Positions 12,226 to 62,689 of a stretch of DNA of 64,000 bases are shown in pieces. Within the stretch, counting starts at the first letter, position 1. Every line of letters begins with the position of its first letter. A program made the position numbers and the translations under genes. Under the pieces are notes generated by a model. That model saw only the letters and a list, made by a program, of their open reading frames with translations, was not told where the DNA came from and did not search any database. The stretch covers positions 5,298-69,297 of the forward strand of contig JBDREN010000083.1 of assembly GCA_043819795.1 (NCBI GenBank), given 5' to 3'. This stretch comes from Elusimicrobiota bacterium. GTDB lineage: Bacteria > Elusimicrobiota > Elusimicrobia > UBA1565.

Positions 12226-12348
12226 GGTCGCCTCCCATGGAGATGGACGCGGCCATCCCCTGCGCGATGCTCGGTCATGGTCGCCTCCCACGGCAGTCGA
12301 CGCGACCATTTCCTGCGCTATGCTCGGTCATAACACTGCCTCCAGGTA
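12222..12348 (-). repeat. two tandem 57-nt copies of SD/start-codon-bearing intergenic repeat (mini-ORFs MTEHSAGNGRVDCRGRRP* and MTEHRAGDGRVHLHGRRP*), with own GGAGG SD, ATGA-coupled to each other and to the giant HK start
   Basis: Reverse complement matches repeat at 50606-50719 and 59231-59397; internal 8-bp inverted repeat ATGGTCGC/GCGACCAT; GGGAGG 6 nt before terminal ATG. Confidence 0.7.
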
Positions 12349-14919: not shown

Positions 14920-15167
14920 CCCGCCTCTTACACGAGCCCCTGTGGCGGAGCGTGGATCGTGCTGGGCCCTCCGGCCCTTTCGATCTCGCCACCCGGGACC
15001 AAGCGGCGGTGCCGGCGGCTTGGGTCCGGGCCTCAGCCGCCTCGGCCCACGCGCTCCTCCGAAAACGCTCCCGACGGGGACCCCCGATCCGCCTTAGGCC
15101 CTAAGTCCCGAGAAAGCATGGGCCCCCCGGCACTGGCCTTCTAGGACTTTTCCCCTATCCTATCGGT

Positions 15168-18100: not shown

Positions 18101-20408
18101 CCGCTTCGTGTCCCCCGAGGATTGCCTCAAATCACATCCGCGCGGCTATTGCGATCGGTTCCGGTACAGCAGAGAGGAGCTCATGCGCGCGGTGCGCGGC
18201 TACGGCGCCCTGACCTGGGGCGACCGCCTGATCGAATCGGCCGAGGGCAAGAAGGGCGCGGCCTACTGCGCCACGGCCGGCGCGGGGTGGGGGCTCAAGG
18301 TGTTCGAGAACGTGGGCGAGACGCTCTTCAATCCCGTCATCTGGGCCACTTTCGGCGTGGGCAAGGGAGTGCAGGCCATGACGGCCATGCGCGCCGCGGG
18401 CAACAGCTCGCTCGCGGTCTCCGGCGCGCTCTCCACCGCTCGCGTCACGCACGCGCTCTTGAGCACGACGCTCTACAGCACGTGGGTCGTGGGCGGGGTG
18501 GACAACCTCGGCCAGACCGTGGTCGCGCTCCAGGAAGGCGACAGAGAACAGGCATTGAAGAAGTCGGCCGACCTCGGCACCGATCTCTTCTTCGTCTGGA
18601 TGATGGCCCGCGAGTCTCGCAGCCACAAGCTCCGCCAGAAGGCCCGACAGGCGCTCCTAAAGGAGCAAAGGCTGATCACAAAAGAATACAAGGCCGCTTC
18701 CAAAGCGGTCCGCACTAAGTCCGCGCACGCGACGAACGGCAAAGCCCCGGTCAAGAGCGCCGAGAAGGCGCTCCAGTCCAAGGCCGCGCACGCGACGAAC
18801 GGCAAAGCCCCGGTCAAGAGCGCCGAGAAGGCGCTCCAGTCCAAGGCCGCTCACGCGACGAACGGCAAAGCCCCGGTCAAGAGCGCCGAGAAGGCGATCC
18901 GTTCCAAGGCCGCGCACGCGCAGAAGCCCGCGAAGCCGGCCCCCGAGCCAAAAACGGAGGCCGCACGGGGCAAGACGACGGGCAAGGGCGAGACGCGGGC
19001 CACGAGCGGAGCCCCCAAGAAGCCGGCGCCGAGGACGATCAGGGAGCGCATGCACGAGTGGAAGGCCCGCCTGGTGGAGAACAAGCCCAGGGTCATGGAC
19101 TTTCTGAAGAAGCGTATGCCTAAGCTCAAGTCCTCTCAAGCATCCAAGGCCAAAGCGCTCAAGGCGCGCCAGACCGCAAGGCACACCAAGGCGAACCGGG
19201 CGAAGAAGACGGAATCCAAGTCCGGCAAGAATGCGAAGAGGGGAGGCGAGTCGCCGCTCCGGAATCTCGGCGAACGAGTCGTGGCGGTCGCCAAATCCTT
19301 GATCTCGAAGGGCAAGACGACGGGAAGGAAAGCCCGCAACGCCGGCAAGCTCAAGAAGGCCGCTGTCGCGCCCCGCGCAATCCTGAGTCCCGAGCTCAAC
19401 AGGTTCGCCTCCGAGACGGAGCCCGTACCCGCACCGGACCCGGCGGACTCGGACGCGCGATACACCGCCGATGAGGAGCCTGGAGAAGAGGCCGGCGTGG
19501 ATCCCGGGCAGCGCGGAGAAGACGACGGCCGCGCCGCCCGGGATGCCGCGAAGCCCCGGGCCGAGCCCTTGATCGGAGCCGGCCGCGCGGCGGATTCTCC
19601 CGCCGGCGCCCCGGATTCCGGCGGGGATCAGGCGAGCCCAGGCTCAGGCGGCGATTCCGGAAGCGAAGCCGGCGGCGGCGAGACCGGTTCGGGCACGGGA
19701 AGCGGCGCTCTGGGCGGCGGAAGTCTCGCGAGCGGATCGGGGAGCGGAGGCTCGGGCGGCGGCCGCAAGGGTGCGGGGCGGAATCCCCGCGTGCATGGGC
19801 GGGCGGGACAGAAGTTCGACGGTGGACGGACTACCGTCGCTCGCCTGACCCCGACTTCCCCCCGGCCGTTGCCCTCCCTGCAACCGGAGCGGCCCCGAAT
19901 CATGCCGAGAGCCCCCGAGCCCATAGATCCTTACCGCCAAGCGCACGCTTCGCCGGAGCGCCGGTCCGTCCCGCCAGTCGAGGAGAAACCCGCGCCCCGG
20001 GTGTCCAGGAAGAGTTCGCCGCCCGGGTTCAACGCGACGGGCGGGTCGGGCGGGTCTCTAGCGCCCGGCGGCCCGGAGTTCAAACCGCGGGACCCGTTCC
20101 CCGAGGGCAGGAAGGCGGCTCCGCCGGCGACACCTTCCCCGCCCCGAACCGAGGCGCGCAGCGGCGCTCCCGCCGCCGCGGCCGCCTCTCCCGCCGCGCA
20201 CGACGGCTTCTTCGAGATCCCGCGACACCGCCTCCGCCCGGCCGGCCACCTCCCCAACGGCCGCCTTCCCGAACGGGGGCAAGAGAGCCCCTACCGCGCG
20301 CACGCGCTCAGCCTCCTGCTGGAGCTGGCCGGGCTGGGGGCCGCGATCTACCTTTTTAGGCTCTCAAGATTCCCGTTCCTTATCGGCATCGCGCGCAAAC
20401 GTCTCTGA
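15168..20408 (+). CDS. giant secreted/membrane-anchored protein (1746 aa): signal peptide, large unknown domain, 3x21-aa tandem repeats, lysine/alanine-rich histone-H1-like basic region, G/S-rich and P-rich low-complexity region, C-terminal TM anchor
   Basis: Single long ORF; N-terminal MRRTNGPRWVLLAACALSLQGAARA; C-terminal LSLLLELAGLGAAIYLF; contains two in-frame copies of the 45-nt GC palindromic repeat. Confidence 0.7.
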   Translation: MRRTNGPRWVLLAACALSLQGAARAGTGPRPSPKRLQEEKLPGAIVARLPVPAAFASPGAPASTLSSPAVLLAREIDELFAGLSSETNDGTRALRQPAPEKAPPRGTGSGRLSSRSSPAAGTREPAEVFAALDRRLSDIRARIIDTIDDPEEVAILLARVDRIRGVLAKLRRAGETGQARSLSGAMAGLARALGRGTDDENLSRFETLVDRLMQARSLPPDRLGTIFDNTPEFPDSDVLAPVPAEGFKARAPRARASGAGVSQAALLDIDRYPRPLTGIRVDGGVVPKPRGPGTSAKAEPESEVGRPQRRAVTASQGLERSAVAALSPFAGLSPKGRQDLFRKDRAALRRELLAVGLRALEEGDAELEPYREDLDAADGRLSGMRKALLARLGFDAPPHNDQERSGRFATLTKEAPHLSLYFARRGIYQMRMRQAHGEHAVPPETRFAPWELGIEDGSEKAVVYATAKDGDRTFYGLRREFQDGSSRFAATDGAEGLVVVVSPSDSREIRTRIRFDDQGRPDRTRTSIIDTGTGKRIREEIADIARALTRFVDYDQAGDAVRVLTLDSGTGEQVVEDRRQGRRVATDKDGKVTITPIRGGAQAWQQQGRLDESGRFILDRLVREDGSVVERVSPHVLKISRDGKAQGYEIVVDSIFHGARGPEREAESSRIAREIIAALGYQDKDDRRSRPLSNWLSDTWTKDERTRGVAMTVDPRGRFQVVYSYKDGTKRIERAKYGLSTSYGDGKRELALVTLRPVHTDRQGRARLDPRRYREYLAGGGYNQWHSTFEFKKAGWFSNAKTIEHVSLIRYGRDGSLPRLGPGSGGERDGDSGSGRWTERGREKKDEFVNEVGGTSTFGIVGTAIHEAPVVGDVLQAGGAVGKTLWTGIMAAPPTFIYAVTKDTDYGLAMSGSYAKNPLVNRLVGDQGHLDRMDGKMWEVVLIEARENRRKDLDQMGYTEGNTDPEEHQRLLSQWRGDRFVSPEDCLKSHPRGYCDRFRYSREELMRAVRGYGALTWGDRLIESAEGKKGAAYCATAGAGWGLKVFENVGETLFNPVIWATFGVGKGVQAMTAMRAAGNSSLAVSGALSTARVTHALLSTTLYSTWVVGGVDNLGQTVVALQEGDREQALKKSADLGTDLFFVWMMARESRSHKLRQKARQALLKEQRLITKEYKAASKAVRTKSAHATNGKAPVKSAEKALQSKAAHATNGKAPVKSAEKALQSKAAHATNGKAPVKSAEKAIRSKAAHAQKPAKPAPEPKTEAARGKTTGKGETRATSGAPKKPAPRTIRERMHEWKARLVENKPRVMDFLKKRMPKLKSSQASKAKALKARQTARHTKANRAKKTESKSGKNAKRGGESPLRNLGERVVAVAKSLISKGKTTGRKARNAGKLKKAAVAPRAILSPELNRFASETEPVPAPDPADSDARYTADEEPGEEAGVDPGQRGEDDGRAARDAAKPRAEPLIGAGRAADSPAGAPDSGGDQASPGSGGDSGSEAGGGETGSGTGSGALGGGSLASGSGSGGSGGGRKGAGRNPRVHGRAGQKFDGGRTTVARLTPTSPRPLPSLQPERPRIMPRAPEPIDPYRQAHASPERRSVPPVEEKPAPRVSRKSSPPGFNATGGSGGSLAPGGPEFKPRDPFPEGRKAAPPATPSPPRTEARSGAPAAAAASPAAHDGFFEIPRHRLRPAGHLPNGRLPERGQESPYRAHALSLLLELAGLGAAIYLFRLSRFPFLIGIARKRL
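15899..15946 (+). repeat. 45-nt GC-rich palindromic repeat copy, in-frame inside giant secreted protein (EGFKARAPRARASGAG)
   Basis: Match to consensus GGAAGCCTTCAACGCCTGGGCCCCGCGAGCGAGGGCGAGCGGGAC. Confidence 0.6.
17606..17657 (+). repeat. 45-nt GC-rich palindromic repeat copy, in-frame inside giant secreted protein (GSLPRLGPGSGGERDG), flanked by GGACGGA direct repeats
   Basis: ggacggaagccttccacgcctgggtcccgggagcgggggcgagcgggacgga. Confidence 0.6.
18717..18905 (+). repeat. 3 x 63-bp perfect/near-perfect tandem repeats encoding KAAHATNGKAPVKSAEKALQS
   Basis: Units start 18717, 18780, 18843; partial fourth unit. Confidence 0.8.
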
Positions 20409-24305: not shown

Positions 24306-25730
24306 GTGCCGAAGCCGGAACCGACACCGCGGCCGGAGACCCCGCCCATAGCGGGACGGAAGCCTTCAACGCCTGGGCCCCGCGAGCGAGGGCGAGCGGG
24401 ACGGACGCGCCGGCTGCTGGCCTTCGCGTTGCTCGCCGGGGCGTTGGCGCGCTTCGCAACGGCATTCCTCTATTGGGAAGCGCCGCTCAGCCCGGGCGGC
24501 GATGACCTCCAGTACCATGAGCTGGCCTCCGGGATCGCTTCCGGGCGGGGATACCTCCTGCAGGACGAGCCGAGCGCCTACCGCGGCCCTCTCTACCCCC
24601 TCTTTCTGGCGGCGGCCATGCGGGTGACGGCCAGCGACGCGCCCGGCGTCCTCCGGCTCATCCAGGCGATCCTGGGCCTGCTGGCCCTCTGGCTCGTCTA
24701 CCGTCTAGGCGCGGCCATCCATTCCCCCGAGGCGGGCGCCTGGGCGGCGATGCTCATGGCTCTCTATCCGGAGCAAGTCCTGCTCCCGACGTCGCTCTAC
24801 ACCGAATGCTTCTACGCCTTGATCCTGCTCGTCGTGGCGTGGGCGCTCGCATGCTGGCGGCAAGACCCCCGGCCGGCGCGGCTCGCGGGGCTCGGCGCCG
24901 CGATCGGCCTGAGCCTGCTGACGCGTTCGACGCTGGCGGCCTTGCCCGTCCTGCTCGCGGCTTGGCGGCTCGCGGAGCTCCGCGCCGGACGACGGTGGCT
25001 GCGGGAAACCGCCCTTCTCGCCGTGACCGTTCTGCTGCCGCTCACGCCCTGGATCGTCCGCAACTACGCGCGTTTCGGCAGGGTCATCCCCATGGAGACC
25101 GGCGTCGCCGGTCCCGCGTTATGGTACGCCTCCAAGGGCTGGGTCACGGCGCCCTCGGACATGTCCAGCGTGGAGCCGATGAGGACGATGTACCGGAGGC
25201 TTCCGCATACCGAGTGGGACCGCTTCGCGACGCCGCGAGCCCTGCGCAACATGCGGGCCCGCCCGATGGCGTATCTTCTCGGATGCGCGAAGAGGGCTCT
25301 CTACCTTTGGACCACCGCATACACCCCCTACCTGCTCTACTACCACCACCGCCTCTCGGCGTGGATGCAGAGCGGCGGCCGCTGGAGCTGGATCGCCCTG
25401 GGCGACTGGCTCCTTCGGCTCTGCCTGATCCTGCCGGGGGCCTGGGTACTGCTCCGCAGCGCGCGAAAACGCGGCGGAAGCCTTCAGCGCCTGGGCCCCG
25501 CACCGGCCTCCAACGCAAATCCAAAGGGAGGCCGGCACGGCGCCCCTACCGGGGTGGACGCCGCGAGCACGGGCGAGCGGGGGCTTTGGGCGGTGGCCGG
25601 TTTGGTCCTATACTTCCACATCCACGTCTTCGCGACGGTCTTCGTCCGCTACATGGCGCCGGTGACGCCCCTGCTGTGCGTCCTGGCCGGGGCGGGGTGG
25701 GCCGAGTGGCGAGCCTCGCGCCGAGGCTAA
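24306..25730 (+). CDS. GT-C family membrane glycosyltransferase (ArnT/PMT-like, GT83-type); start uncertain (GTG), N- and C-terminal regions each carry a copy of the 45-nt repeat
   Basis: Multiple TM helices, motif LSPGGDDLQYHELASGIASGRGY; repeat copies at 24353-24406 and 25474-25583 in frame. Confidence 0.7.
   Translation: MPKPEPTPRPETPPIAGRKPSTPGPRERGRAGRTRRLLAFALLAGALARFATAFLYWEAPLSPGGDDLQYHELASGIASGRGYLLQDEPSAYRGPLYPLFLAAAMRVTASDAPGVLRLIQAILGLLALWLVYRLGAAIHSPEAGAWAAMLMALYPEQVLLPTSLYTECFYALILLVVAWALACWRQDPRPARLAGLGAAIGLSLLTRSTLAALPVLLAAWRLAELRAGRRWLRETALLAVTVLLPLTPWIVRNYARFGRVIPMETGVAGPALWYASKGWVTAPSDMSSVEPMRTMYRRLPHTEWDRFATPRALRNMRARPMAYLLGCAKRALYLWTTAYTPYLLYYHHRLSAWMQSGGRWSWIALGDWLLRLCLILPGAWVLLRSARKRGGSLQRLGPAPASNANPKGGRHGAPTGVDAASTGERGLWAVAGLVLYFHIHVFATVFVRYMAPVTPLLCVLAGAGWAEWRASRRG
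24353..24406 (+). repeat. 45-nt GC-rich palindromic repeat copy (gggacggaAGCCTTCAACGCCTGGGCCCCGCGAGCGAGGGCGAGCgggacgga), translated as [15 protein letters not shown]
   Basis: Best-conserved exemplar; 8-bp flanking direct repeat GGGACGGA. Confidence 0.65.
25474..25583 (+). repeat. 45-nt repeat copy split by a ~62-nt nested hairpin insertion (CCGGCCTCC..GGAGGCCGG)
   Basis: 5' half ggaagccttcagcgcctgggccccgca and 3' half cgcgagcacgggcgagcggggg separated by insertion. Confidence 0.5.
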
Positions 25731-32600: not shown

Positions 32601-32927
32601 TCGGGCCCGCGGCGTCCCCCCGGGACCGACGCCCTTCGGACCGAAGCGCAGGCTGTGACGCCCCCGGCGGGCGCCGTTGAAGCGCCGTACCGCGGCGCGC
32701 GCCCGCCGAGACCTCCCCACCGCGCGCGTGCGGGGCGGCTCGGGCCGGTCCAGGCCGAAGCGTCCGGCGTCGTCGCGATGATGCGGCTCCGGACGCACGG
32801 CGAACGCGGCGCGGGCGCCGCCCGCCATGAGCAGCGCGGCCAACGCCCCGGAAGTCATCAACACACGGGCCCCGCGAGCCGGGGCTCGCGGGGAGACCGC
32901 CGGAGGCCTGGATACCCGGCGCATCAC
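29637..32927 (-). CDS. secreted zinc metalloprotease (fungalysin/thermolysin-like, HEYVHFV) with C-terminal T9SS-type sorting domain (ends KKVIVVK)
   Basis: HExxH motif VRHEYVHFV; propeptide-like N-terminus; C-terminal ~80 aa matches Por secretion CTD pattern (FNPSRGEFTTIRYEI...GIYLLNLEAPG...KKVIVVK). Alternative start 32858. Confidence 0.75.
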   Translation of the reverse strand: MMRRVSRPPAVSPRAPARGARVLMTSGALAALLMAGGARAAFAVRPEPHHRDDAGRFGLDRPEPPRTRAVGRSRRARAAVRRFNGARRGRHSLRFGPKGVGPGGTPRARVEAREVAVAFLREYGPELGLRADELRLELGRTAGGIHHLLFEQVVEGVPVEFSRVKVHLDEAGAILSLQSSYRPGVRESPVPRLDEAAAALRAAADLGGAAPRPRGGRLVFFPLRGSDAVRLAWRFRVSGRGGGWIYYVDAGSGEILLRYNDLRFQAACASSGTVTGNVYDIDAGTSPLSVRPFKNQRVYVVDSSTFALTDANGFFCSQTAGKIFTSLQGPYVHVANFNVPNAHYDNGGGKWKTFSTPLSSPHPYSNDAVLISTINATPQDAPGAVKLLPVFSSFDVGGIEFFAGDLEITDDDQVAILDADGYPVAGYLGNRGPFNGAAVAGTQLRLRLKSNESGTRNGFDISHSSYLYLTNSPGSSDNATATFTWTTARTFDGTEDEINLFYHINRMHDYFADGPNSADGADIDKPVPVMARAGPGLSNAFYDPLHENLMFGDVGNSLALDASVVRHEYVHFVVDQIYPIINFGQFGAISEALADYFAASSLGNSAIGTYANVGFQSEGALRELDCPSETACVIFPAHWTGAIHDDSRMISQAVWGLRGQLMTQLGAANGQACADGLVFQALFFFPDSFEDFLEAMLEVDKRAAALVAACGGDNLRGGDIVNAFALHNIVLNPPDEDVYEPNNGIQSATDITTAPVISARIYPAADLDYYAFGAAEGLIRLTLTLPQDPGFPGTYRAYSMSLIDSRYEIVRKAGPVIDINPTLGGYCPDTGCRTSSRKVVLEYVSPRSDQYFLVVSAPEGDEYALVTNNNSTEFYGLEAEYSRAGPVASSIVAASFDNDVISFEVRVATFVTSQNYMFHHARLRDHALRVLPGTATDGASPFLTFVSSSNGLGRVSGTLALASGFNERFRAVGTVHLEVFGGNPLGHVQSLGFSPAINLTADRTALTPFNNVFNPSRGEFTTIRYEIQSAGHVRLRLFTRTGRHVLTLIDEFKPAGKGSVDWSGANRLGSRVASGIYLLNLEAPGIRETKKVIVVK

Positions 32928-37415: not shown

Positions 37416-38773
37416 GCCGCGGCGTCCTGCTCGCGGCGTCGTGCGCCTTGGCCGCCGTGGCCGCCGCGGCGCCCCTATCGGGGAGCCGCCCGGAGGGCCC
37501 GCCGGCACGCTCACGCGCTTTTGTGGCAAGCGCGGTACTGCACACTCCGGCGCCGGAAACACCCTCGGCACCGGCCGGTCCCGGCGTCGTTCCGGGGCCG
37601 GGTCCTGTGCCGGGCTCGCCGCCGCGCGCGGCCGCGGCGGAGTCCCTCACCCCCGCGAGCCCGTCGGAACCGATCATCGCGGTGGGCATCGCCCACAGGG
37701 TCCCGAAGATCACGGTGCGTCCGGAGGGCCGATTCTCGGTCATAGACGAGACGACCGGCGAGATGAAGCGGCTCGAGCGCGGACGCGCCTACACGGTCGA
37801 AGCCGACGAGGGAGAGCGCCTCATCCTGGGGCCCTTCCTCTTCTTCGGCCCGACGCGGCTCCTGCCCGGCCGGCCCGAGGAGTATGTCCTGATCGGGGAG
37901 CGCAAGTACCGCGGGAATCTGGTTTTCCGCCCGAATAAAGACGAGACGATCACCGTCATCGATGAGTTGGGCCTCGAAGAATACCTCTACGGGGTCCTGC
38001 CGACGGAGATGAGTCCCGAATGGCCGCTCGAGGCTCTCAAGGCCCAGGCCGTCGTCGCGCGCACCTTCGCGCTCAACAACCTCGGCAAGTACTCTTCCTC
38101 GGGCTACGACCTGACCGACGACTCCCGCAGCCAGATCTACACCGGGATCACGATCGAATCCGTCCGGGTCCGGCGAGCGGTGAAGGAGACGGCCGGCCAA
38201 GTGATCTATTGGCGCGGGAAACGCCTCCCGGTCCACTTTCATTCCTGCTGCGGAGGCCGCACGACCGATCCGGCCTCGGTCTGGGGCCCGTTGCGGACCG
38301 CCGACGCCGGAGAGCGGGGCGCGGCCGAGAGCCCGCGCCCCCTGCGCGGCGTGCGCGATCGCTACTGCCAGGACACGCCGCACTACGGCTGGACGGCGTA
38401 CTTCAGGAAAGACGACATGCTCCGGGCGCTCCAGCGCGGCGGCCACAACGTGGCCACCCTCACGGCGATCAAGCCCGGGCGCCGGACCTCTTCGGGCTAC
38501 CTCCGGTACCTCCGCCTCAAGCTCGACGGCGCCTGGAGACGCGTGGCGGCCAACGACCTGAGGATGTGGCTCGGCCCCGCCGAGCTAAAGAGCACGCGGA
38601 TACGACGGGTGACCCGCCGGCGCAAGGGCTTCGAGTTCGCCGGGCGCGGCTACGGGCACGGCGTCGGCCTGTGCCAGTGGGGAGCCCGCGTCCAGGCCGA
38701 GCGAGGCGGCGGATACCGCGATATCCTGGGATTCTATTTCCCCGGAGCGGAAATCGGCCCGCGGGAGCGCTAG
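37412..38773 (+). CDS. SpoIID/LytB-domain protein (amidase enhancer-like)
   Basis: Signal peptide, proline-rich linker, SpoIID motifs [39 protein letters not shown]. Confidence 0.75.
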
Positions 38774-38774
38774 C

Positions 38775-38825
38775 CACGGAAACCTTCAACGAGCGGACCC
38801 CGCGAGCGAAGGCCGGCGAGACGGA
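38775..38825 (+). repeat. 45-nt GC palindromic repeat, divergent copy 1 of tandem pair in spoIID-queA spacer
   Basis: cacggaaaccttcaacgagcggaccccgcgagcgaaggccggcgagacgga. Confidence 0.5.
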
Positions 38826-38829
38826 GGCC

Positions 38830-38888
38830 GGGACGGAAGCCTTCAACGCCTGGGTCCCGCGAGCAAGGGCCAGCGAAGCGCGGTCCCG
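38830..38888 (+). repeat. 45-nt GC palindromic repeat, copy 2 of tandem pair
   Basis: gggacggaagccttcaacgcctgggtcccgcgagcaagggccagcgaagcg. Confidence 0.6.
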
Positions 38889-49495: not shown

Positions 49496-50609
49496 CGAAC
49501 GCGGCTTCCGCGGCGGCGAGCGCCAGCTCCTGTATCTGGCCGCTCATCTGCGCGCCCGGGGTCACGAGAACGTCGTGGTCTGCCGGGGACGCGAGGCCCT
49601 CGAGGCCGAGGCCCGCCGCCAGCGCTTCCGAACGATGCGCCTACCCTTCCTCGGCGAATGGGACCCGGTCTCCGCGTGGCGGCTCCGGAGGGCGTCCCGG
49701 TCGGCGCGGCACGCCCCCGTGCTCCACGCCCACACCGCTCACGCCGCCGCCCTCGCCTACCTGGCGTCGCGCTTCGGAGGTCCCCCGTGGGTGGCGCACC
49801 GCCGCGTCGACTTCCACCTCAACGGCTCGCTCAGCCGCCGTCTCAAATACGACACCGCGCCCCGCGTGATCGCCGTCTCCGAGAGCATCCGCCGCATCCT
49901 GGTCGCCGACGGAATGGAGGGCTCGCGCATCACGGTCGTCCCGGACTGCATTCCTCTCACTGACGATGAGGCGCGCCTCGCGGGTCTCGACGCCGGTCCG
50001 ATGCGCCGGGCCACCCGCTCGGAAACCGCCGCCATACGCCGTCCCCTCGCCGAGAACCTGGGCCTTCCCGAGACCGGGCCCTGGATCGGCAACCTGGCGG
50101 CCCACGTTCCGCACAAGGACCAGGCGACCCTGATACGAAGCCTGCCTTCTGTGCTGAAGGCGCTGCCGAAAGCGCGCCTGCTGCTCGTGGGCGACGGCCC
50201 TCTCCGGACGGAGCTCGAGGCGCTGGCTCGGTCGCTGGGCGTCGAATCGGCCGTCCGCTTCGCCGGCCACCAGAGCGATCCGGCGCCGTGGCTGAGCTGC
50301 CTCGACGTCTACGTCCAGTCGTCCTGGGGAGAGGGGATGGGATCGGTGCTTCTCGAGGCGATGGCCTGCGGCGTCCCGATCGTCGCGACGACGGCGGGAG
50401 GGATACCCGAGGTGATCGAGCACGGGCGCAGCGGGCTCCTCGTGCCCCCGCGCGATCCGGAGCGAATGGCGGGTGCGATCGTCGACTCCTTGCTCGATCC
50501 CGAAAGCGCCCGGCGCAGGGCGGACGCGGCGGCCGAGGATCTGAAGTCTTTCGGCCTCAGCCGCGTCGGTGACCGCATGATCGCGCTCTATCGCGAGGTG
50601 ACGGAGTGA
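49461..50609 (+). CDS. glycosyltransferase family 4
   Basis: GEGMGSVLLEAMACGVPIVATTAGGIPEVI. Confidence 0.75.
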   Translation: MAKRFTLFHLDSERGFRGGERQLLYLAAHLRARGHENVVVCRGREALEAEARRQRFRTMRLPFLGEWDPVSAWRLRRASRSARHAPVLHAHTAHAAALAYLASRFGGPPWVAHRRVDFHLNGSLSRRLKYDTAPRVIAVSESIRRILVADGMEGSRITVVPDCIPLTDDEARLAGLDAGPMRRATRSETAAIRRPLAENLGLPETGPWIGNLAAHVPHKDQATLIRSLPSVLKALPKARLLLVGDGPLRTELEALARSLGVESAVRFAGHQSDPAPWLSCLDVYVQSSWGEGMGSVLLEAMACGVPIVATTAGGIPEVIEHGRSGLLVPPRDPERMAGAIVDSLLDPESARRRADAAAEDLKSFGLSRVGDRMIALYREVTE

Positions 50610-50719
50610 CCGAGCATAGCGCGGTTTCGGCTGCGTGCCTCAGCCATTCCCTCGCGTTTGGCCGCAAACGCTTCGGTCACAGGAATGGTCGCGTCGATCG
50701 CCGCGGGAGGCGACCATGA
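50606..50719 (+). repeat. 114-nt long form of SD/start-bearing intergenic repeat: mini-ORF GTG..TGA (37 codons) whose GTG overlaps upstream GT4 stop (GTGA) and whose TGA overlaps downstream GT2 ATG (ATGA)
   Basis: Near-identical to 59231-59344; internal hairpins GCGTTTG-gccg-CAAACGC and ATGGTCGC..GCGACCAT; GGGAGG 6 nt before ATG 50716. Confidence 0.7.
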
Positions 50720-51519
50720 AGCCGAAGCTGAGCGTCATCGTCATCGCCCGCGACGAGGAGCGAGACCTGCCGGCCTGCCTCGAGAGCGTGCGGGGCCTCG
50801 ACGCCGAGATCATCGTCCTGGACAGCGGCTCGACCGACCGCACGCGCGAGATCGCCCGCCGGTTCACGCCCCATGTCTTCCAGCAGCCCTTCCGGGACTT
50901 CGGCTCCCAGAAACAGTCGGCCTTGGAACGCGCCTCGGGCGAATGGGTCCTCTCTATCGACGCCGACGAACGCCTGAGCGGCGAGCTGCGCCTGGAGATC
51001 GCCCGCCTGATCGAGTCCCCCCCGGGCGGCGTCTCCGGCTACGACATCCCTTTCGAGGTCCACTTCATGGGCCGCCGCCTCCGGTTCGGCGGCCTGGGCC
51101 GGGAGCGGCACCTGCGCCTGTTCCGGCGCGGGGCCGGGGTCTTCACCGGAAACCACCTTCACGAGGGCGTCTCCGTCACGGGGGCGACGGCGCGCGCGGG
51201 CGCGCCGATCCGGCACATCCCCTACCGGGACCTCGACGACTATCTGGGGAAGCTGCGCGTCTACACGACCCGGGCCGCCCGCAAGAGATTCGACCAGGGG
51301 CGGAGGTTCCACCCGCTCCACCACCTGCTGCCGCTTTGGGAGTTCTTCCTGCGCGTCGTGGTGAGGCTCGGGATGCTGGACGGGACCCCCGGCCTGCTTT
51401 GGGCGGGGCTCTCTTCGTTCCATACGTGGATCAAATACGTGAAGCTGCGCGAGATCGCGGAGGAGCCCGGAAGCCTTCCACGCCTGGGTCCCGCGAGCAA
51501 GGGCGAGAGGAAGCGGTGA
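50716..51519 (+). CDS. glycosyltransferase family 2; C-terminal 15 aa encoded by a copy of the 45-nt repeat (51468-51514)
   Basis: SVIVIARDEERDLPACLESV...DADE; C-terminus PGSLPRLGPASKGERKR. Confidence 0.8.
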   Translation: MKPKLSVIVIARDEERDLPACLESVRGLDAEIIVLDSGSTDRTREIARRFTPHVFQQPFRDFGSQKQSALERASGEWVLSIDADERLSGELRLEIARLIESPPGGVSGYDIPFEVHFMGRRLRFGGLGRERHLRLFRRGAGVFTGNHLHEGVSVTGATARAGAPIRHIPYRDLDDYLGKLRVYTTRAARKRFDQGRRFHPLHHLLPLWEFFLRVVVRLGMLDGTPGLLWAGLSSFHTWIKYVKLREIAEEPGSLPRLGPASKGERKR

Positions 51520-55197: not shown

Positions 55198-56037
55198 ATG
55201 AGGCTTGGCTGGCTGGGACTGGCTCTGCTGATCCCCTCGGCGGCCGGGGCCGAGCCCTCATTGCCCCACGGCGAGCCGGTGCGGATCACGAGCGACACGG
55301 TCCCGTCCCCATACGCCCTCATCGCCGGCACCCTGCCCTACTCGTCGGAGTACGCCCAGGTCCCCTGGTTCCCCGAGTCCCTCGAGTTCGAGGTCAAATG
55401 GGGCGTGTTCTCCATGGGGTTCGCGACCATGGAGTCCAAGAGGATCGTGGATTTCGGGGGCCAGCCCGCCTTCGAGATCGTGTCCACGGCGAGATCGAAC
55501 CGGTTCGCGGACAGCTTCTACCAGGTCCGCGACATCAACGAATCCTGGATCCGAGCACGCGACCTGAGCTCTCTGGGATACTCGAAGAAGCTGCGCGAAG
55601 GGAAGTTCTTCCGCGACGAGTGGGTCCTCTTCGACTACGGCCGCAAGAGCTTCCTGTCCAAGCGCGTCAACCGCGACGGCAGCTTCAGCCATAGCGCGGG
55701 GGACATACCCGGCACGGTCCAGGACATCCTTTCGAGCATGTACTATATCCGCCCCCGCCGCCTCGAAGTGGGCGATGAGATCACGCTGGACGTCAACACG
55801 AAGGAGAACTGGCCGCTGGTGATCAAGGTCCTGCGCAAGGCCACGGTCCAGGTCCCGGCCGGACGCTTCCGGACTGTCGTCGTCGAGCCGTTCCTCCGGA
55901 AGGAGGGCATCTTCATCCAGAAGGGCAAGAGGATGCGCGTCTGGGTCACCGACGACGAGCGCCACATCCCGGTCCTCCTGAAGGTGGAGATCGTCTTCGG
56001 CCACATCTCCGCTTATCTCACCAAGATCGACCGCTGA
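55198..56037 (+). CDS. DUF3108-like secreted protein (frequent in LPS clusters)
   Basis: Signal peptide; family call from memory of architecture. Confidence 0.55.
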   Translation: MRLGWLGLALLIPSAAGAEPSLPHGEPVRITSDTVPSPYALIAGTLPYSSEYAQVPWFPESLEFEVKWGVFSMGFATMESKRIVDFGGQPAFEIVSTARSNRFADSFYQVRDINESWIRARDLSSLGYSKKLREGKFFRDEWVLFDYGRKSFLSKRVNRDGSFSHSAGDIPGTVQDILSSMYYIRPRRLEVGDEITLDVNTKENWPLVIKVLRKATVQVPAGRFRTVVVEPFLRKEGIFIQKGKRMRVWVTDDERHIPVLLKVEIVFGHISAYLTKIDR

Positions 56038-58094
56038 TGCCGCCCGCGGCCCTCCGGCGCCTGAAAGAGCCGGCGATCGTGCTCCTGATCCTGGCGGCGG
56101 CGATCGCCGTCGTCTACGCCGTCGTCCTGGGAGCGCCCGTCGTATACGACGACGACGTCCTGGTCCGGGGGAACCCGGCGTTCCTCCTCCCGCCGGCGGA
56201 GTTCTGGAGCCGCCTTTGGTCGCTCGACTATTTCGCGTTCACGCAGGAGCGCTCTTACCAGCCGCTCGTGACGCTGCTGCACTACCCGCTCTTCCGGCTG
56301 CCCTGGGCGTACCGGAGCCTGGGACTGGCTCTGCACGCGGCCAACGGCCTGCTCGTCTACGCGATCGGCCGCCGGCTCGCGTTCGGCTCCGGCCAAGCGC
56401 TGGCCGCGGCGCTCCTGTTCGCGCTGTTCCCGGCGTCCACTGAGGCCCTCAACATCTCGTCGTTCAAGGGCCACCCGCTCGCGCTCGCGTTCTCCCTGAG
56501 CACGCTGCTCGCCTGGATGCGAACCGGCGAACGGCCTTCGGCCCCGGCCCCGCTCGCCCCCGCTCGCGGGGCCCAGAAATTGAAGGCTTCCGCCCCGCTT
56601 CTCCTCGCCCATCTTTCGCTCGTCTTCGCCCTGCTGTCCAAAGAGACCGGGCTCATCGCCCCGGCGCTCGTCGTCGTCCACGCGCTGTGCTATCTGCGCG
56701 GGCGGCCGCGGGCGGCTCTCTGGCGCGCTTCGGGCCTGCTGGCGCTCAGCGCCCTCTATCTTTGGTTCCGCTTCGGGCTGCTCCCGCCGCCCCCTTCCCT
56801 GGCGCCCGGGGAACGTGCCGTCGCGACGCTCTGGCTCCCCTGGGAGTCCTTCGGCTGGTACTTAAAGACCCTGATCGCGCCGCTGCCCCTCTGCCTGGAG
56901 CATTCCCTGGACCACGGGCCCTCGGCGACGGCCCGTGCCGGGGCCGCCTTCCGCATGCTCTTGCCCGCGCTCTACGCCTTGCTGCTGTGGCGCTGGCGGC
57001 GCCGGTCCGACAGGCTCTTTTTGCTGCTCTGGATACTCGCCGCCACGCTCCCCTTCCTGCACCTGATCCCGTTCTCCAACTACAGCCCGGTCGCCGACCG
57101 CTACCTCTACGCGGCCTCGGCCGGTCTCTCGCTTCTGGCGGTCCGCGGTCTCTGGGACACGCGCATGAGGGCCGCCCTCCTGGCCGTCGCGCTCGCCTGG
57201 GGCGCGCTTTCCATCGCCCGCAACGCCCTGTATAGGGACACCCGCGCCCTCTACGAGCAGACCGCCGCGTGCGCTCCCGGCAACCCGCGCGCGCACGCCC
57301 TGCTGGCGGGCTGGCACTACAGCGCGGGGCGCGATTATCCCGCGGCGCTCGAGGGCTTCCGCCGGGCCTTCGCCTTGGCCCCGGAGCTCTTGTCCCACTT
57401 CCGCGACCCGGGACTCGTGCATGCGCAGCGCCCCTCGTATATCCTCGGGCTGATCCATCACCGGATGGGCGACGAAGACCGGGCCGCCGAGCTGCTCGAG
57501 CGGGCGCTGGGAGCCGAAAGCCGGCCCCTCGCCCGCGCCGCCCTCCATGAGAAGCTGGGCGACGTCCACGGGGCGCGGGGGGACCTCTCCCGGGCGCTGG
57601 CCGAATACCGGGCCGCGCGCGCCATCCTGCCGCACTGGGGATTGCCGTACCTCAAAGAGGGCCTCGCGCTCCAGACGAGCCAGCCCGCGCGTGCTCTGGC
57701 TCTCATGGAGCGCTCCCGCGCCCTGACCCCGGACCACGACGAGCCCCACCGCCGCCTGCAGGCCAGGATCGACCGGCTGCTCGGGGACGCCTATCTGGCG
57801 CAAGGGATGCCCGAGAGGGCCGTTCGCGCCTGGGAGTCGGCCGAAGCCAAGGTCCCGGGCCGACTGGACCTCCTGCTCCACCTAGCCGACACCTACCGGA
57901 GCATCGGGGATCGATCGGCTTCCGCTTCGGCCTACCGCCGCGCCCTGGCCGCGGCGGACCGGACCCTCGCCCGGCTTCGCCGGCTTCCGGAGGCCGGCGC
58001 CGGCACGGCTGAGTCGGAGAGGCTCATCTCCTCCGTGCGCCGGCAGGCGCGGAAGGCGGAGGCGGCGCTCCGAGAGCTCGAATCGGCCCCCTGA
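56037..58094 (+). CDS. TMTC/PMT_2-like GT-C membrane glycosyltransferase with C-terminal TPR repeats; carries in-frame inverted copy of 45-nt repeat (56546-56596)
   Basis: N-terminal VVYDDDVLVRGNP motif, ~10 TM helices, TPR-like C-terminal half. Confidence 0.65.
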   Translation: MPPAALRRLKEPAIVLLILAAAIAVVYAVVLGAPVVYDDDVLVRGNPAFLLPPAEFWSRLWSLDYFAFTQERSYQPLVTLLHYPLFRLPWAYRSLGLALHAANGLLVYAIGRRLAFGSGQALAAALLFALFPASTEALNISSFKGHPLALAFSLSTLLAWMRTGERPSAPAPLAPARGAQKLKASAPLLLAHLSLVFALLSKETGLIAPALVVVHALCYLRGRPRAALWRASGLLALSALYLWFRFGLLPPPPSLAPGERAVATLWLPWESFGWYLKTLIAPLPLCLEHSLDHGPSATARAGAAFRMLLPALYALLLWRWRRRSDRLFLLLWILAATLPFLHLIPFSNYSPVADRYLYAASAGLSLLAVRGLWDTRMRAALLAVALAWGALSIARNALYRDTRALYEQTAACAPGNPRAHALLAGWHYSAGRDYPAALEGFRRAFALAPELLSHFRDPGLVHAQRPSYILGLIHHRMGDEDRAAELLERALGAESRPLARAALHEKLGDVHGARGDLSRALAEYRAARAILPHWGLPYLKEGLALQTSQPARALALMERSRALTPDHDEPHRRLQARIDRLLGDAYLAQGMPERAVRAWESAEAKVPGRLDLLLHLADTYRSIGDRSASASAYRRALAAADRTLARLRRLPEAGAGTAESERLISSVRRQARKAEAALRELESAP
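56546..56596 (-). repeat. 45-nt GC palindromic repeat copy (inverted orientation), in-frame within TMTC-like gene ([17 protein letters not shown])
   Basis: ccgctcgcccccgctcgcggggcccagaaattgaaggcttccg. Confidence 0.6.
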
Positions 58095-58127: not shown

Positions 58128-59234
58128 ACGATGAAACCCTCCCGCCCGTCGCTCAAACGCCTGCTTTCCATCCTGGCGCGATTCCGCCGGAGACGAGTGC
58201 TCGTTCTCGGCGATCTGATGCTCGACCATTTCGTTCGGGGACGCGTGAACCGCCTCTCGCCCGAGGCGCCGGTGCCGGTCGTCGCCGTCGACGAGGAGAC
58301 CCATATGCCGGGAGGGGCCGGCAACGTCTGCAGCAACCTTAGCGCCCTCGGCGCGGCCGTCTCGGTGTTCGGCGTGCTCGGCGACGACGCGGCCGGCGGC
58401 CAGCTGATCCGGGACCTCCAGGCCAGAGGCGTGGACACCGGAGGCGTCGTGCTCGACGCCTTGCGCGTGACGACGCAGAAGTGCCGCATCGTCGCGGAGC
58501 ACCAGCAGGTGGTCCGGTTCGACCGGGAGACCCCTCGCGTGCTCTCCGCGCAGACGCAGTCGAAGCTCCTCCGGAAGCTGAGCGAGGCGATGAGCGGGGC
58601 CGACGCGGTGGTGGTTTCCGATTACGGAAAAGGCGTCGTCACGGCGAACGCCGTGCGTAAGGCGCTGCGGGCGGCGCACCGCGCCCGGCTGCCGGTCGTC
58701 GTCGACCCGAAGGTGGAGCACTTCCGCCGCTATAAGGGAGTCGACTGCATCACGCCGAACCTCCAGGAGGCGTGGGGCGGCATGGGACTGCACCCCTCCC
58801 AGGACGAGGCCGCCATCCACCGGCTCGGCCGCCGCATCCTGGCGGCCCTCCGCGTGCGCTCCGTGCTGATTACCCGGGCGGAGAAGGGCATGACCCTCTT
58901 CGCGGCGAACGATCCGGGGCCGATCTTGCCGTCGCGCACGCGCGGGGCGGAAGCCCTCGACACCCGGGCCCCGCGAGCAAGGGCGCGCGGGGCGGGCAAG
59001 ATCGTCGTCGACCACATCCCGACCCAAGCCAAGGAGGTCTACGACGTGACCGGAGCCGGGGACACCGTCGTCAGCGTGCTGTCTCTGGCGCTCGCCTCAG
59101 GCGCCCGCCTCTATGAGGCGGCCGTTCTGGCGAACCTGGCGGCGAGCATCGTCGTGGGCAAGCTAGGGACCGCCACCATCTCCGCCGACGAGATCAAGCG
59201 GGCGGTCCGCGAATCCGGCCGGAGGCGCTCGTGA
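58128..59234 (+). CDS. hldA: D-glycero-beta-D-manno-heptose-7-phosphate kinase (RfaE/HldE domain I type, stand-alone) with in-frame 45-nt repeat insertion (58945-58995)
   Basis: RVLVLGDLMLD, PGGAGNV, DPK, VTGAGDTV ribokinase-family motifs. Confidence 0.85.
   Translation, partial: TMKPSRPSLKRLLSILARFRRRRVLVLGDLMLDHFVRGRVNRLSPEAPVPVVAVDEETHMPGGAGNVCSNLSALGAAVSVFGVLGDDAAGGQLIRDLQARGVDTGGVVLDALRVTTQKCRIVAEHQQVVRFDRETPRVLSAQTQSKLLRKLSEAMSGADAVVVSDYGKGVVTANAVRKALRAAHRARLPVVVDPKVEHFRRYKGVDCITPNLQEAWGGMGLHPSQDEAAIHRLGRRILAALRVRSVLITRAEKGMTLFAANDPGPILPSRTRGAEALDTRAPRARARGAGKIVVDHIPTQAKEVYDVTGAGDTVVSVLSLALASGARLYEAAVLANLAASIVVGKLGTATISADEIKRAVRESGRRRS
58945..58995 (+). repeat. 45-nt GC palindromic repeat copy inserted in-frame into heptose kinase (EALDTRAPRARARGAG)
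   Basis: ggcggaagccctcgacacccgggccccgcgagcaagggcgcgcggggcggg. Confidence 0.6.
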
Positions 59235-59397
59235 CCGAGCATAGCGTGGTTTCGGCTGCGTGCCTCAACCATTCCCTCGCGTTTGGCCGCAAACGCTTCG
59301 GTCACAGCAATGGTCGCGTCGATCGCCGTGGGAGGCGACCATGACCGAGCATAGCGCAGGAAATGGTCGCGTCGATCGCCGTGGGAGGCGACCATGA
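59231..59397 (+). repeat. long (114 nt) + short (57 nt) tandem units of SD/start-bearing repeat between hldA and kdsB; GTGA overlap with hldA stop, ATGA between units, ATGA into kdsB
   Basis: Direct comparison with 50606-50719 (4 substitutions) and 12222-12335. Confidence 0.7.
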
Positions 59398-60164
59398 TCC
59401 TAAGGCGCAGCCGCTCGAGAACGCTCGTCGTGATCCCGGCGCGTCACGCCTCGACGCGCCTGCCCGGCAAGGTGCTCAAGCCCCTCGGCGGCATCCCGGT
59501 GGTCGAGTGGGTGCGGCGGTCCGCGATCCGGGCCGACCGCGGACCCGTCGTCGTCGCGACCGACCACCCGGACGTCCTGCACGCCGTCGAGCGTTTCGGC
59601 GGCTCGGCGGTACTCACCTCGGAGCGCTGCTCCTCCGGGACCGATCGCGTCGCCGAGGCGCTGCGGATCGTCGAGGCCGCCCGCGGGCTCCGCTTCCGCG
59701 CCGTCATCAATCTGCAGGGCGACGAGCCGTTCATCCGTCCGGCCACGATCCGCAGGGTCGCGGCCCTGATCGAGAAAGGGGCGGACATCTCGACCGCGGT
59801 CGTCCCGCTCTCCTCGCGGCGCGCGGCCGCCGATCCGAACGTCGTCAAAGCGGCCGTCGCGGCCGACGGACGCTGCCTCTATTTCTCCCGCTCGGCCATC
59901 CCCTTCGCCAACGGCGTGGACCGCCGCCTTTCCTTCCGCCATATCGGCATATACGGCTTCACTCGCGAGGCGCTACGGCGCTTCGTGCGCCTGCGCCCTT
60001 CGCCTCTCGAGCGCGCCGAGCGCCTCGAGCAGCTGCGCGCCCTCGAGGACGGCATGACGATCGTAGCCGCGCGCGTCGCCGATCCCGGCATCGCGATCGA
60101 CACCCCGGCCGATCTTGCGCGCGCGCGCCGGCGATGCCGAGGCAGGACCAAGACACATGGCTAA
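59394..60164 (+). CDS. kdsB: 3-deoxy-manno-octulosonate cytidylyltransferase
   Basis: [17 protein letters not shown]..., LQGDEP. Confidence 0.9.
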
Positions 60165-61785
60165 GTTCATCTTCGTCACCGGCGGCGTCGTCAGCTCCCT
60201 AGGGAAGGGCATCAGCGCGGCCTCGCTGGCCAAGCTCCTGCAGGCCCGGGGCATCAAGGTCACCTGCCTAAAATGCGACCCCTACATAAACGTGGACCCC
60301 GGGACCATGAACCCCTATCAGCACGGGGAGGTCTTCGTGACCGAGGACGGCGCCGAGACCGACCTCGACCTGGGCCATTACGAGCGCTTCCTCAACACCG
60401 ACCTGCACCACACGAACAATTTCACGGCCGGGCAGGTCTACGAGACCGTGATCGCCAAGGAGCGCGCCGGGGAGTTCCTGGGGAACACCGTCCAGGTCAT
60501 CCCGCACATCACCGACGAGATCAAGCATCGCTACCGCCTCGTGGCCAAAGGCCGGGACGTCGTCATCATCGAGGTCGGCGGGACGGTGGGCGACATCGAG
60601 AGCCTCCCCTTCCTGGAGGCGGCGCGGCAGCTCGGCCTCGAAGCCGGGAAAGACAACGTCCTCTACATCCATGTGACGCTTCTGCCGTTCTTGCGCGCCT
60701 CCGAGGAGGTCAAGACGAAGCCGACGCAGCATTCGGTCGGCAAGCTGCGCGAGATCGGCATCAACCCCGACATCATCATCTGCCGGGGCGAAAAGCCCCT
60801 CGCCCCGGAGCTGAAGGCCAAGATCGCGATGTTCTGCAGCGTCCACAAGGATGCCGTCATCGAGGCCCCCGACGTCTCGACGATCTACGAGGTCCCTCTC
60901 GTCTTCCGCCGGCAGGGGCTCGACGAGCAGGTGCTGATGCTGCTGCGGCAGCGCGCCCACACGAAGGATCTCGAGGATTGGAAGAAGCTGGTCGACCGGA
61001 TCAAGAAGCCCGGGGAGGAGGTGCGCATCGCGCTCGCGGGCAAGTACACCGAGATCAAAGACGCCTACAAGTCGGTCCATGAGGCCATCGTTCACGGAGG
61101 CATCGCCAACGACGCCCGGGTGCGCATCCACTACGTCGACACCACCTCCCGGGATCTCGAGGAGACCCTGAAGGATCTCGACGGGGTCCTCGTTCCCGGA
61201 GGCTTCGGCGACCGCGGCATCGACGGCAAGCTGCGCGCGATCCAAATCGCGCGGGAGCGGGAGATCCCGTTCCTCGGGCTCTGTCTCGGGATGCAGCTGG
61301 CCGTCGTCGAGTTCGCCCGGAACGTCCTCAAGCTGGCCGGCGCCAACTCGACCGAATTCGATCCCAAGACGCCCTACCCGGTCATCGACCTGCTCCCCGA
61401 GCAAAAGAACGTCAAAGAGAAGGGCGGGACGATGCGCCTGGGAGCCTACGAGTGCAGCATCAGGAAAGGAAGCTTGGCCCACAAAGCCTACCGGACCGGC
61501 ATGGTCTCGGAGCGCCACCGCCACCGCTTCGAGTTCAATAACAAGTTCCGGAAGCTCGTCGAGGACTCCGGTCTGCTCGTCACCGGGATCTTCGCCTCCA
61601 AGAACCTCGCCGAGATCGTCGAGATGCGCGGGCACCCCTGGTTCCTGGCGTCGCAGTTCCATCCGGAGTTCAAGTCGCGGCCCGAGGAACCCCACCCCCT
61701 ATTCGCCGACTTCGTCGCCGCGGCGCTCGCTCGCTCGCGCGCTCGGCGCCGCCCCGCGCGGAAGGCCCCCCATGCGAAAAGGTAG
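60157..61785 (+). CDS. pyrG: CTP synthase
   Basis: [19 protein letters not shown]..., GATase domain GLCLGMQ, HPEF. Confidence 0.95.
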
Positions 61786-62689
61786 CCCCGCTCGCCCCCG
61801 CTCGCGGGGCCCGGGTGTTGAAGGCTTCCGCCCTGCCCGCGGCGTGCGCATCGGAGCCTTCTCCGTCGGCAACGAACTCCCGCTCTTCTTCATCGCCGGC
61901 GCCTGCGTGCTGGAGTCCAGCGAGCTCCTCTACCGGGTGGGGCGCGCCCTGAAGACCGCTTTCGCCCGCGCCGGAGTCCCCTGGGTGCTGAAATGCAGCT
62001 TCGACAAGGCGAACCGGTCCTCCCTGCGCGGGTTCCGGGGCCCGGGCATGTCGCGGGCGCTCGAGGTATTCGCCCGGGCCAAGAGGGACCTCGGCGTGCC
62101 GTTTCTGACCGATATCCACCAGCCCTCGCAGGCCGAACAGGTGGCGAAGGTCGCCGACATCATCCAGGTCCCGGCGTTCCTCTGCCGGCAGACGGACCTC
62201 CTGGTGGCCGCCGGCAAGACGGGGAAGGCGGTCAACATCAAGAAAGGGCAGTTCCTCTCCCCCTGGGACATGACCAACGCCGTCGAGAAGGTCGCCTCCA
62301 CGGGGAACCGGAAGATCCTGCTCACAGAGCGCGGCACCTCGTTCGGTTACGCCAATCTCGTCGTGGATATGCGCTCGCTCGAGATCATGGGGCGGACAGG
62401 CTGTCCCGTGGTATTCGACGCGACGCACTCCTGCCAGCTTCCCGGCTCGATGGGGACCGCGACCGGCGGGCAACGCCGCTACGCGTGGCTTCTCGCCCGG
62501 GCCGCGGCGGCCGCGGGGGTCGCGGGCATATTCCTGGAGGCCCATCCGGACCCCGCCCGAGCGAAGTCCGACGGGCCGAACTCGCTTTGTCTAAGCGACG
62601 TGCCGGCGTTCGTGCGCAGCGTCACGCCCATAGACCGCCTCGTAAAGACCGGGGCGGCCCGACGCGCGAGGAGGGGCGTCCACCCATGA
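61772..62689 (+). CDS. kdsA: 2-dehydro-3-deoxyphosphooctonate aldolase (Kdo8P synthase); first 24 codons are an inverted 45-nt repeat copy, GTG 61844 may be true start
   Basis: [14 protein letters not shown]...[11 protein letters not shown]...[10 protein letters not shown]. Confidence 0.85.
61786..61836 (-). repeat. 45-nt GC palindromic repeat copy (inverted) at pyrG/kdsA junction
   Basis: ccccgctcgcccccgctcgcggggcccgggtgttgaaggcttccgcc. Confidence 0.6.

Follow-up and report, generated by a model that had tools for sequence, protein, structure and literature searches.

A 54-nt repeat at the pyrG/kdsA junction of an Elusimicrobiota bacterium, probably translated as part of the KdsA leader

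The best-known case of small repeats colonising genes in frame is that of Rickettsia. Repeats of the REP, BIME and REPIN types, which RAYT transposases mobilise, are extragenic by definition and usually have a GTAG-type head and a well-paired palindrome, often in inverted pairs and with a RAYT gene. The Rickettsia palindromic elements (RPEs) are small repeats inserted in frame in housekeeping genes (Ogata et al. 2000, reviewed in PMC10969869 and PMC3184786), and the mycobacterial interspersed repetitive units (MIRUs) contain open reading frames (ORFs) that overlap, at their ends, with the neighbouring stop and start codons in polycistrons (Supply et al. 1997, summarised in PMC3184786). Intragenic copies are also known of several MITEs (miniature transposable elements with inverted repeats), namely ERIC, Correia/NEMIS and BOX (PMC10969869). 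Here we analysed a 64-kb stretch of DNA (the window, 68% GC) on a 72-kb contig of a metagenome-assembled genome (MAG) of an Elusimicrobiota bacterium, in which a 54-nt repeat lies at the junction of pyrG and kdsA. By comparison with the systems above, this repeat appears to behave like RPEs and, at gene junctions, like MIRUs. The literature that we searched contains no account of such repeats from Elusimicrobia.

The pyrG/kdsA junction

The explanation that best accounts for this locus, and that we consider probable, is an insertion of the repeat in the leader of kdsA, where it is read through from the ATG at 61772. The genes are arranged in the order DUF3108, TPR membrane protein, hldE, kdsB, pyrG, kdsA, Zn-ribbon, lptC, and the order around pyrG-kdsA is the same in related Elusimicrobia contigs. 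The junction is made up of the following parts:

60157-61785, plus strand: pyrG (CTP synthase), 542 aa, with the stop codon TAG at 61783-61785, from the ORF and its translation
61760-61765, plus strand: GGAAGG, resembling a Shine-Dalgarno (SD) motif, within the pyrG coding sequence at -12 to -7, that is 6 nt 5' of ATG 61772
61772-61785, plus strand: 14-nt overlap of kdsA and pyrG, from the kdsA ATG (61772-61774) to the end of pyrG, with the geometry of translational coupling
61772-62689, plus strand: long form of kdsA, 305 aa, without internal stop and joining the conserved KdsA N-terminus; the favoured product
61785-61838, minus strand: copy of the 54-nt repeat, about 18 aa in the kdsA frame, from a leave-one-out nhmmer search and alignments
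61844-61846, plus strand: alternative in-frame kdsA start GTG, giving a product of 281 aa (MRIGAF...)

A preliminary description of this DNA had placed ATG 61772 over the end of pyrG, and the ORF coordinates bear this out, with an overlap of 14 nt. It had further proposed that a repeat in reverse orientation bridges the pyrG stop and kdsA, whose ORF stays open through it. This also held when tested: an nhmmer profile built without the kdsA copy recovered it at 61785-61834 on the minus strand (E=1.6e-13). In an exact search with the 39-nt core of the copy, 0 chance matches were expected from shuffles, and a de novo repeat search paired the copy with nine plus-strand copies and one other minus-strand copy. 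The copy begins with the final base of the pyrG stop codon, 13 nt inside the kdsA ORF. The 24 codons that had been attributed to the repeat turned out to be of two origins, about 18 of them being repeat-derived (about 61785-61838) and the remainder native.

We compared the junction with those of four relatives, L001 (GWA2_69_24), L081 (JACRDO010000139), L082 (JBDRPD010000002) and L003, all of which lack the repeat. PyrG is 73-76% identical to the PyrG of L001 and L003. In L001, L081 and L082, kdsA overlaps the end of pyrG by 14 nt, and in L003 by 11 nt. One relative has CCCCCATGCGAAAAAGTAACC where the window has CCCCCATGCGAAAAGGTAGCC at the kdsA start, and across the junction L081 reads cccccATGcgaaaaagtaacc where the window reads cccccATGcgaaaaggtagcc. 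The same 14-nt overlap in relatives without the repeat marks ATG 61772 as orthologous to their ATG and, by this sequence comparison, as the ancestral kdsA start. As aligned, the repeat sits in the N-terminal leader of kdsA, a variable region, which it entered in an open frame behind roughly the fifth codon and right after the pyrG stop: L081 has cccccATGcgaaaaagtaaCC... (MRKSNLRRVTPVRIG) and the window has cccccATGcgaaaaggtagCC... (MRKGS-[repeat]-RGVRIG). The native codons preceding the repeat encode MRKG, with the counterpart MRKS in L081, and those following it encode (G)VRIG, the start region of KdsA.

The alignment of KdsA N-termini and PyrG C-termini with those of relatives, which had been put forward as a check, thus established the orthology of ATG 61772 and, for the other protein, went against the earlier suspicion that the basic PyrG tail had been influenced by the element. 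The profile match begins only at 61785, the last base of the stop codon. PyrG ends in ...KAPHAKR here and in ...ALPHAKK in L081, and the PyrG tails of L001 and L082, where there is no repeat, are likewise basic and variable and about as long. An element-derived tail was rejected from the profile boundaries and the tails of the relatives; judged from these alignments, the C-terminal tail of PyrG is native.

Several observations bear on which start codon is used. L082 carries a strong AAGGAGG at -13 to -7 of its kdsA ATG, and the GGAAGG of the window stands at the equivalent position. GTG 61844 has no SD-like motif 5-10 nt upstream, and the nearest one, GAAGG, is too distant at 19-23 nt. Among the Elusimicrobia KdsA homologues listed, most start with M[PR]x, continue with 5-25 residues that vary and are often basic, and then reach VRIG; the length of the leader varies naturally among relatives, and a longer leader is therefore plausible. 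The 305-aa ORF is identical to the NCBI protein P0001, annotated as 3-deoxy-8-phosphooctulonate synthase, and its match to Pfam DAHP_synth_1 spans residues 31-283. An AlphaFold2 (AF2) model of this form (pTM 0.89) shows residues 1-20 as coil with a pLDDT of 56 and the fold starting from residue 25. Because of the orthologous ATG, the positions of the SD-like motifs, the variable leaders and the N-terminal coil, we favour translation from ATG 61772, which would likely give a KdsA with about 18 repeat-encoded residues. The two options of the preliminary description, a repeat-encoded extension or initiation at GTG 61844, were both apt, and the comparative evidence from the ATG and SD position of the relatives favours the extension.

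In the sequence of events that we propose, the 54-nt repeat would have been inserted right after the pyrG stop codon, 13 nt 3' of the ancestral ATG of kdsA. Ribosomes ending pyrG, or bound at GGAAGG, would then initiate at ATG 61772 and read through the repeat. The product would be a KdsA whose disordered, naturally variable leader is about 18 aa longer and whose TIM-barrel enzyme is unaffected. More generally, the repeat may persist only where frames stay intact: in loops at the protein surface, and in the codons at either end of genes that are tightly packed and overlap.

Copies of the repeat in the window and comparison with known systems

A search of the 64-kb window with an nhmmer profile found 11 copies of the repeat (E from 1e-15 to 5e-5), 61-93% identical in pairwise comparison. 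The repeat is about 54 nt long with a GC content of 75-80%, and its consensus in plus orientation is GCGGGACGGAAGCCTTCAACGCCTGGGCCCCGCGAGCGAGGGCGAGCGGGGCGGA. This consensus is open in five of the six frames, the sole stop being a TGA within GTTGAAGG in one reverse frame. The host genes read the element in five frames, which are exactly the open ones, and the TGA frame is used by none, a pattern expected from broad insertion followed by survival of only the frame-preserving copies where a genome is dense in genes. Relative to transcription, eight copies are in sense and three in antisense orientation. All 11 lie within long ORFs with a high GC content at third codon positions (high GC3) or within the terminal codons of such ORFs, and none interrupts an ORF.

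The best-conserved copies have a 45-nt core (15 codons) between near-identical direct repeats CGGGRCGGA (CGGGACGGA / CGGGGCGG). The kdsA copy (5/10 positions) belongs to the half of the copies in which these repeats are degenerate. Alignment of the flanks revealed no terminal inverted repeats and no copy-specific target-site duplications (TSDs), and about 30 window proteins scanned against Pfam contained no transposase-like domain. The copies at 58943 and 61783 have similar 5' flanks (GCGCACGC); we judged this likeness coincidental because GTGCGCATCGG (VRIG) is native in relatives. Exact patterns of the repeat gave 0 matches in 185,579 GTDB species genomes, in JGI metagenomes (two patterns) and in IMG/VR, and no carrier besides this MAG is known from these scans. 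A search of six loci in five genomes of related Elusimicrobia with the family profile yielded no copy. A concatenate of five element-encoded peptides returned nothing at E<=10 from 5.8 billion proteins, queries this short being unable to reach significance.

Five copies are internal to genes and have the same high-GC3 frame on both sides:

58943-58996, plus strand: copy in hldE, in a 28-aa in-frame insert at the beta-hairpin turn GMTLF...HIPT
56544-56597, minus strand: copy in frame within the TPR membrane-protein gene (56037-58094), in a loop that precedes a transmembrane helix
25470-25585, plus strand: split copy in a PMT_2-family gene, which keeps the frame despite a unique 60-nt insert at 25502-25561
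15893-15946, plus strand: copy in a 1767-aa ORF (15105-20408), in frame
17604-17657, plus strand: second copy in the same 1767-aa ORF, in a different frame of the element

The HldE turn measures 5-8 residues, and 15 at most, in 55 Elusimicrobia homologues, and the 28-aa insert is absent from all of them. The insert splits the PfkB Pfam match, and in the AF2 model of HldE (mean pLDDT 91, pTM 0.90) it forms a loop between two strands (residues 260-290) with a pLDDT of 51-62. The insertion in hldE extends over 84 nt (58921-59002), beyond the 54-nt core, and is bracketed by a 10-nt inverted repeat (CGATCTTGCC / GGCAAGATCG) that closes the entire insert in the predicted fold; this inverted repeat could be due to chance or could be a sign of a longer composite element. 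The 60-nt insert in the split copy has a 7-9-bp hairpin of its own (CCGGCCTCC...GGAGGCCGG) and is not repeated elsewhere in the window. The 1767-aa ORF also contains three tandem 63-nt (21-aa) repeats, KAAHATNGKAPVKSAEKALQS, within 18689-18925.

The remaining six copies, the one in kdsA among them, are found at gene junctions, within about 60 nt of a stop codon:

51463-51516, plus strand: copy that makes up the final ~17 codons of a GT2 glycosyltransferase gene, whose stop overlaps the start of the next gene as GTGA just after it
32844-32897, plus strand: copy in the 5' part of a secreted-peptidase gene (minus strand), 27 nt 3' of a TGATG stop/start overlap that joins this gene to the HEAT-repeat gene upstream
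24352-24405, plus strand: copy at the start of the same PMT_2-family gene that holds the split copy, between the stop of a DUF4254 gene (24291-93) and the first transmembrane helix
38773-38882, plus strand: two tandem copies, starting at 38773 and 38829, after the spoIID stop (38771-73) and before the conserved N-terminus of QueA

In L081, an equivalent ATGA overlap follows the GT2 gene, without a copy of the repeat. The PMT_2 gene has GTG 24306 as its only in-frame start 5' of the first transmembrane helix. In the minus-strand region 32858-32927, the NCBI start of the peptidase gene, ATG 32858, falls inside a mutated repeat copy (GAAGTCATCAAC for GAAGCCTTCAAC). An alternative ATG, 32924, overlaps the stop of the HEAT-repeat gene as a classic TGATG and would place the repeat in the n-region of the signal peptide.

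The queA frame 3' of the tandem copies contains no ATG, GTG, TTG, CTG, ATT, ATC or ATA before the conserved N-terminus, and any initiation therefore reads through both copies. NCBI places the start at GTG 38677 (P0121), and the Pfam domain begins at residue 84. The nearest in-frame starts are GTG 38671 and 38677, about 100 nt inside spoIID, and a nearby ATG (about 38888) is out of frame. With no in-frame start between the spoIID stop and the QueA N-terminus, either QueA is extended by 83 aa, two copies of the repeat among them, or there is damage to the gene or the assembly at this point.

With RPEs the repeat shares several features. Both are small, non-autonomous repeats dispersed in unrelated housekeeping genes, in frame, with the encoded peptide in a tolerant place, and the HldE loop is the clearest parallel. 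As for RPEs, we found a diverged multi-copy family with in-frame copies that are absent from orthologues (in HldE, and, relative to L081, at the GT2 C-terminus and in the kdsA leader). The AF2 predictions for HldE and KdsA place the inserts in a loop or a terminal coil and leave the fold intact. RPEs are, however, about 105-150 bp long, AT-rich like their hosts and plainly palindromic, with a single conserved peptide per family that is encoded in a single frame, whereas the 54-nt repeat is 75-80% GC, weakly palindromic and read in five frames, so that a single insertion frame was not found for it. About half of its copies are at gene starts or ends and not inside domains. The two are not expected to be related in sequence.

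The likeness to MIRUs concerns the junctions. Both are GC-rich repeats of 40-100 bp at cistron junctions of operons in a high-GC genome, at times in tandem as at 38773-38882. MIRUs are co-transcribed, with ORFs that overlap the stop and start codons on either side, and the same may apply to the 54-nt repeat. A MIRU, however, forms a mini-ORF of its own between genes. The kdsA copy begins at the last base of the pyrG stop, has no mini-ORF and is fused into the downstream gene, and five other copies are gene-internal. A second, unrelated repeat family of the window (59231-59397, 50606-50719), described below, is far closer to the MIRU architecture.

REP, BIME and REPIN sequences resemble the repeat in being short, GC-rich and able to form hairpins, in occurring in both orientations and, presumably, in reaching hundreds of copies per genome (here, 11 in 64 kb). 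They differ in that all 11 copies of the 54-nt repeat are in ORFs, with no GTAG head, no inverted pairs and no transposase-like domain among the window proteins scanned. Like the repeat, MITEs occasionally have copies in frame or fused to gene ends, which create new peptide segments. MITEs have terminal inverted repeats and TSDs, in contrast to the near-identical direct terminal repeats and the lack of a variable TSD here. In the best supported view, the element is non-autonomous and probably selfish, and its host tolerates it as a passenger that is translated.

Alternative explanations

An alternative in which kdsA initiation has moved to GTG 61844 seems rather unlikely to us. The repeat would then be an untranslated intercistronic spacer of 58 nt, and the long ORF an annotation artefact of stop-poor sequence with 68% GC. 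This GTG is in frame and stands immediately 5' of the conserved VRIG, and one homologue, P0036, begins with MRIG. In a GC-rich genome an open frame through a 54-nt insert is moreover unsurprising, since five of the six frames of the repeat are open. Against this, the GTG lacks a suitably placed SD-like motif, and the ancestral ATG 61772 is intact and in frame together with its GGAAGG, so that ribosomes starting there would make the long KdsA anyway. Four other junctions in the window likewise have the repeat in the coding frame, next to a stop/start overlap or a start, and it displaces neither. Use of GTG 61844, as the sole start or in addition to ATG 61772, is possible at a rather low probability.

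The position of this GTG and the MRIG start of P0036 count against read-through from ATG 61772, and so do some further points. As an SD, GGAAGG is imperfect, and no SD is present in L081 or L003, which makes SD evidence weak in this clade. All comparison genomes are distant, with a KdsA identity of <=73%. No close relative offers an empty site, and the exact boundaries of the insertion and any native codons that it may have replaced cannot be defined. The claims about the family were drawn from a survey of 64 kb of the genome. We infer that the element is or was mobile solely from its dispersed, diverged copies; that it is selectively neutral is likewise our inference.

A functional cis element, retained at operon junctions to tune expression as an mRNA hairpin or as a protein-binding DNA site, appears improbable. 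Six of the 11 copies are indeed within about 60 nt of junction stop codons, and the 3' half of the repeat can form an imperfect 10-bp GC-rich hairpin, CCCCGCGAGC-N4-GCGAGCGGGG, which is perfect in the copy at 32844 and paired in 74% of cells across copies. Covariation in both candidate hairpins was, however, no better than in shuffles. Folds of single sequences gave z-scores of -1.5 to +1.75, which are not significant, and the kdsA region folds worse than shuffled sequence. No copy matched Rfam 15 at the gathering score or at E<=5, and there is no T-run for termination. A structured RNA was rejected as the main explanation on account of the missing fold excess, covariation and Rfam match. Both orientations occur and five copies sit deep in coding sequence, which, together with the lack of a structural signal, disfavours a cis-regulatory role.

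The repeat could also go undecoded, through ribosome hopping or mRNA excision, with the CGGGRCGGA direct repeats 45 nt apart as take-off and landing sites. Precedents are T4 gene 60 and the 'byps' of Magnusiomyces mitochondria, which are GC-rich mobile inserts in coding DNA (PMC5009743). The 45-nt core between near-identical flanks in the best-conserved copies would fit such bypassing, as would a GC-rich insert in coding DNA, similar to byps. We regard it as very unlikely because all five internal copies are stop-free and keep the frame, with lengths that are multiples of three, and removal of the repeat would demand neither. If the length were free, five frame-keeping copies would have a chance of about (1/3)^5. 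Nor is there a stop or rare codon after the putative take-off codon; the frame varies by host, and half of the copies, that of kdsA included, have degenerate direct repeats. As the sequence comes from a MAG, the repeat might finally be an artefact of assembly or binning. This is practically excluded because the copies have diverged to 61-93% identity and each is in a unique, syntenic and ORF-preserving context on a single contig.

Beyond insertion and read-through at kdsA, a less likely possibility is that the repeat represents undescribed, frame-neutral mobile DNA with a 45-nt core, direct repeats of ~9 nt, no inverted termini and no nearby transposase. It might amount to several hundred copies per genome in an Elusimicrobiota lineage and be an independent, GC-rich counterpart of RPEs. 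Spread could occur, for example, by microhomology- or template-switch-mediated copying into CGGGRCGG-like sites. Coding sequences and coupled junctions would be colonised in this way, with N-terminal, C-terminal and loop segments added to essential enzymes.

For annotation, the repeat insertions mean that the extra length of the 305-aa KdsA, the 367-aa HldE and the 427-aa QueA of this MAG does not reflect new domains. Start-codon calls beside such repeats need comparative checks, as illustrated by the NCBI start ATG 32858 inside a copy. The kdsA case makes a modest point of annotation and biology, and the family as a whole is of moderate interest. In-frame colonisation in a free-living, high-GC bacterium of a candidate phylum suggests that this behaviour is a general outcome. 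Overlapping stop/start junctions are the preferred location of the copies, and the same operons contain a MIRU-like mini-ORF repeat as well. When selfish repeats invade a genome that is very dense in genes, they may last only as passengers that are translated and neutral to the frame, and such repeats would then be a source of new disordered protein segments.

A second repeat family and other observations

The second family, unrelated to the 54-nt repeat, consists of mini-ORF cassettes between genes at 59231-59397, 50606-50719 and 12214-12331 (minus strand). Its unit of 57 nt is ATGACCGAGCAT...GGGAGGCGACCATGA, and a 114-nt variant encodes VTEHS[AV]VSAACL[NS]HSLAFGRKRFGH[SR]... The start of the mini-ORF overlaps the upstream TGA (GTGA/ATGA) and its own TGA overlaps the next ATG, with GGGAGG 7 nt 5' of the ATG of the next gene. 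This family is a MIRU-like 'portable translational-coupling' cassette. Cassettes form the chain hldE, mini-ORF1, mini-ORF2, kdsB, and in L001 hldE and kdsB abut directly. Another cassette links a gene ending at 50609 through a mini-ORF to the GT2 gene (ATG 50716). The minus-strand cassettes appear to precede the start of a giant ORF at 4627-12327 (2566 aa, minus strand), which is histidine-kinase-like, with a C-terminal HATPase_c domain and a body full of degenerate internal repeats.

We further noticed that a contig labelled 'Patescibacteria group bacterium', L002 (SCSN01000008.1), carries pyrG followed by kdsA, with a KdsA 57-59% identical to that of the window. Its bin label is probably wrong, since lipopolysaccharide genes are unexpected in Patescibacteria.

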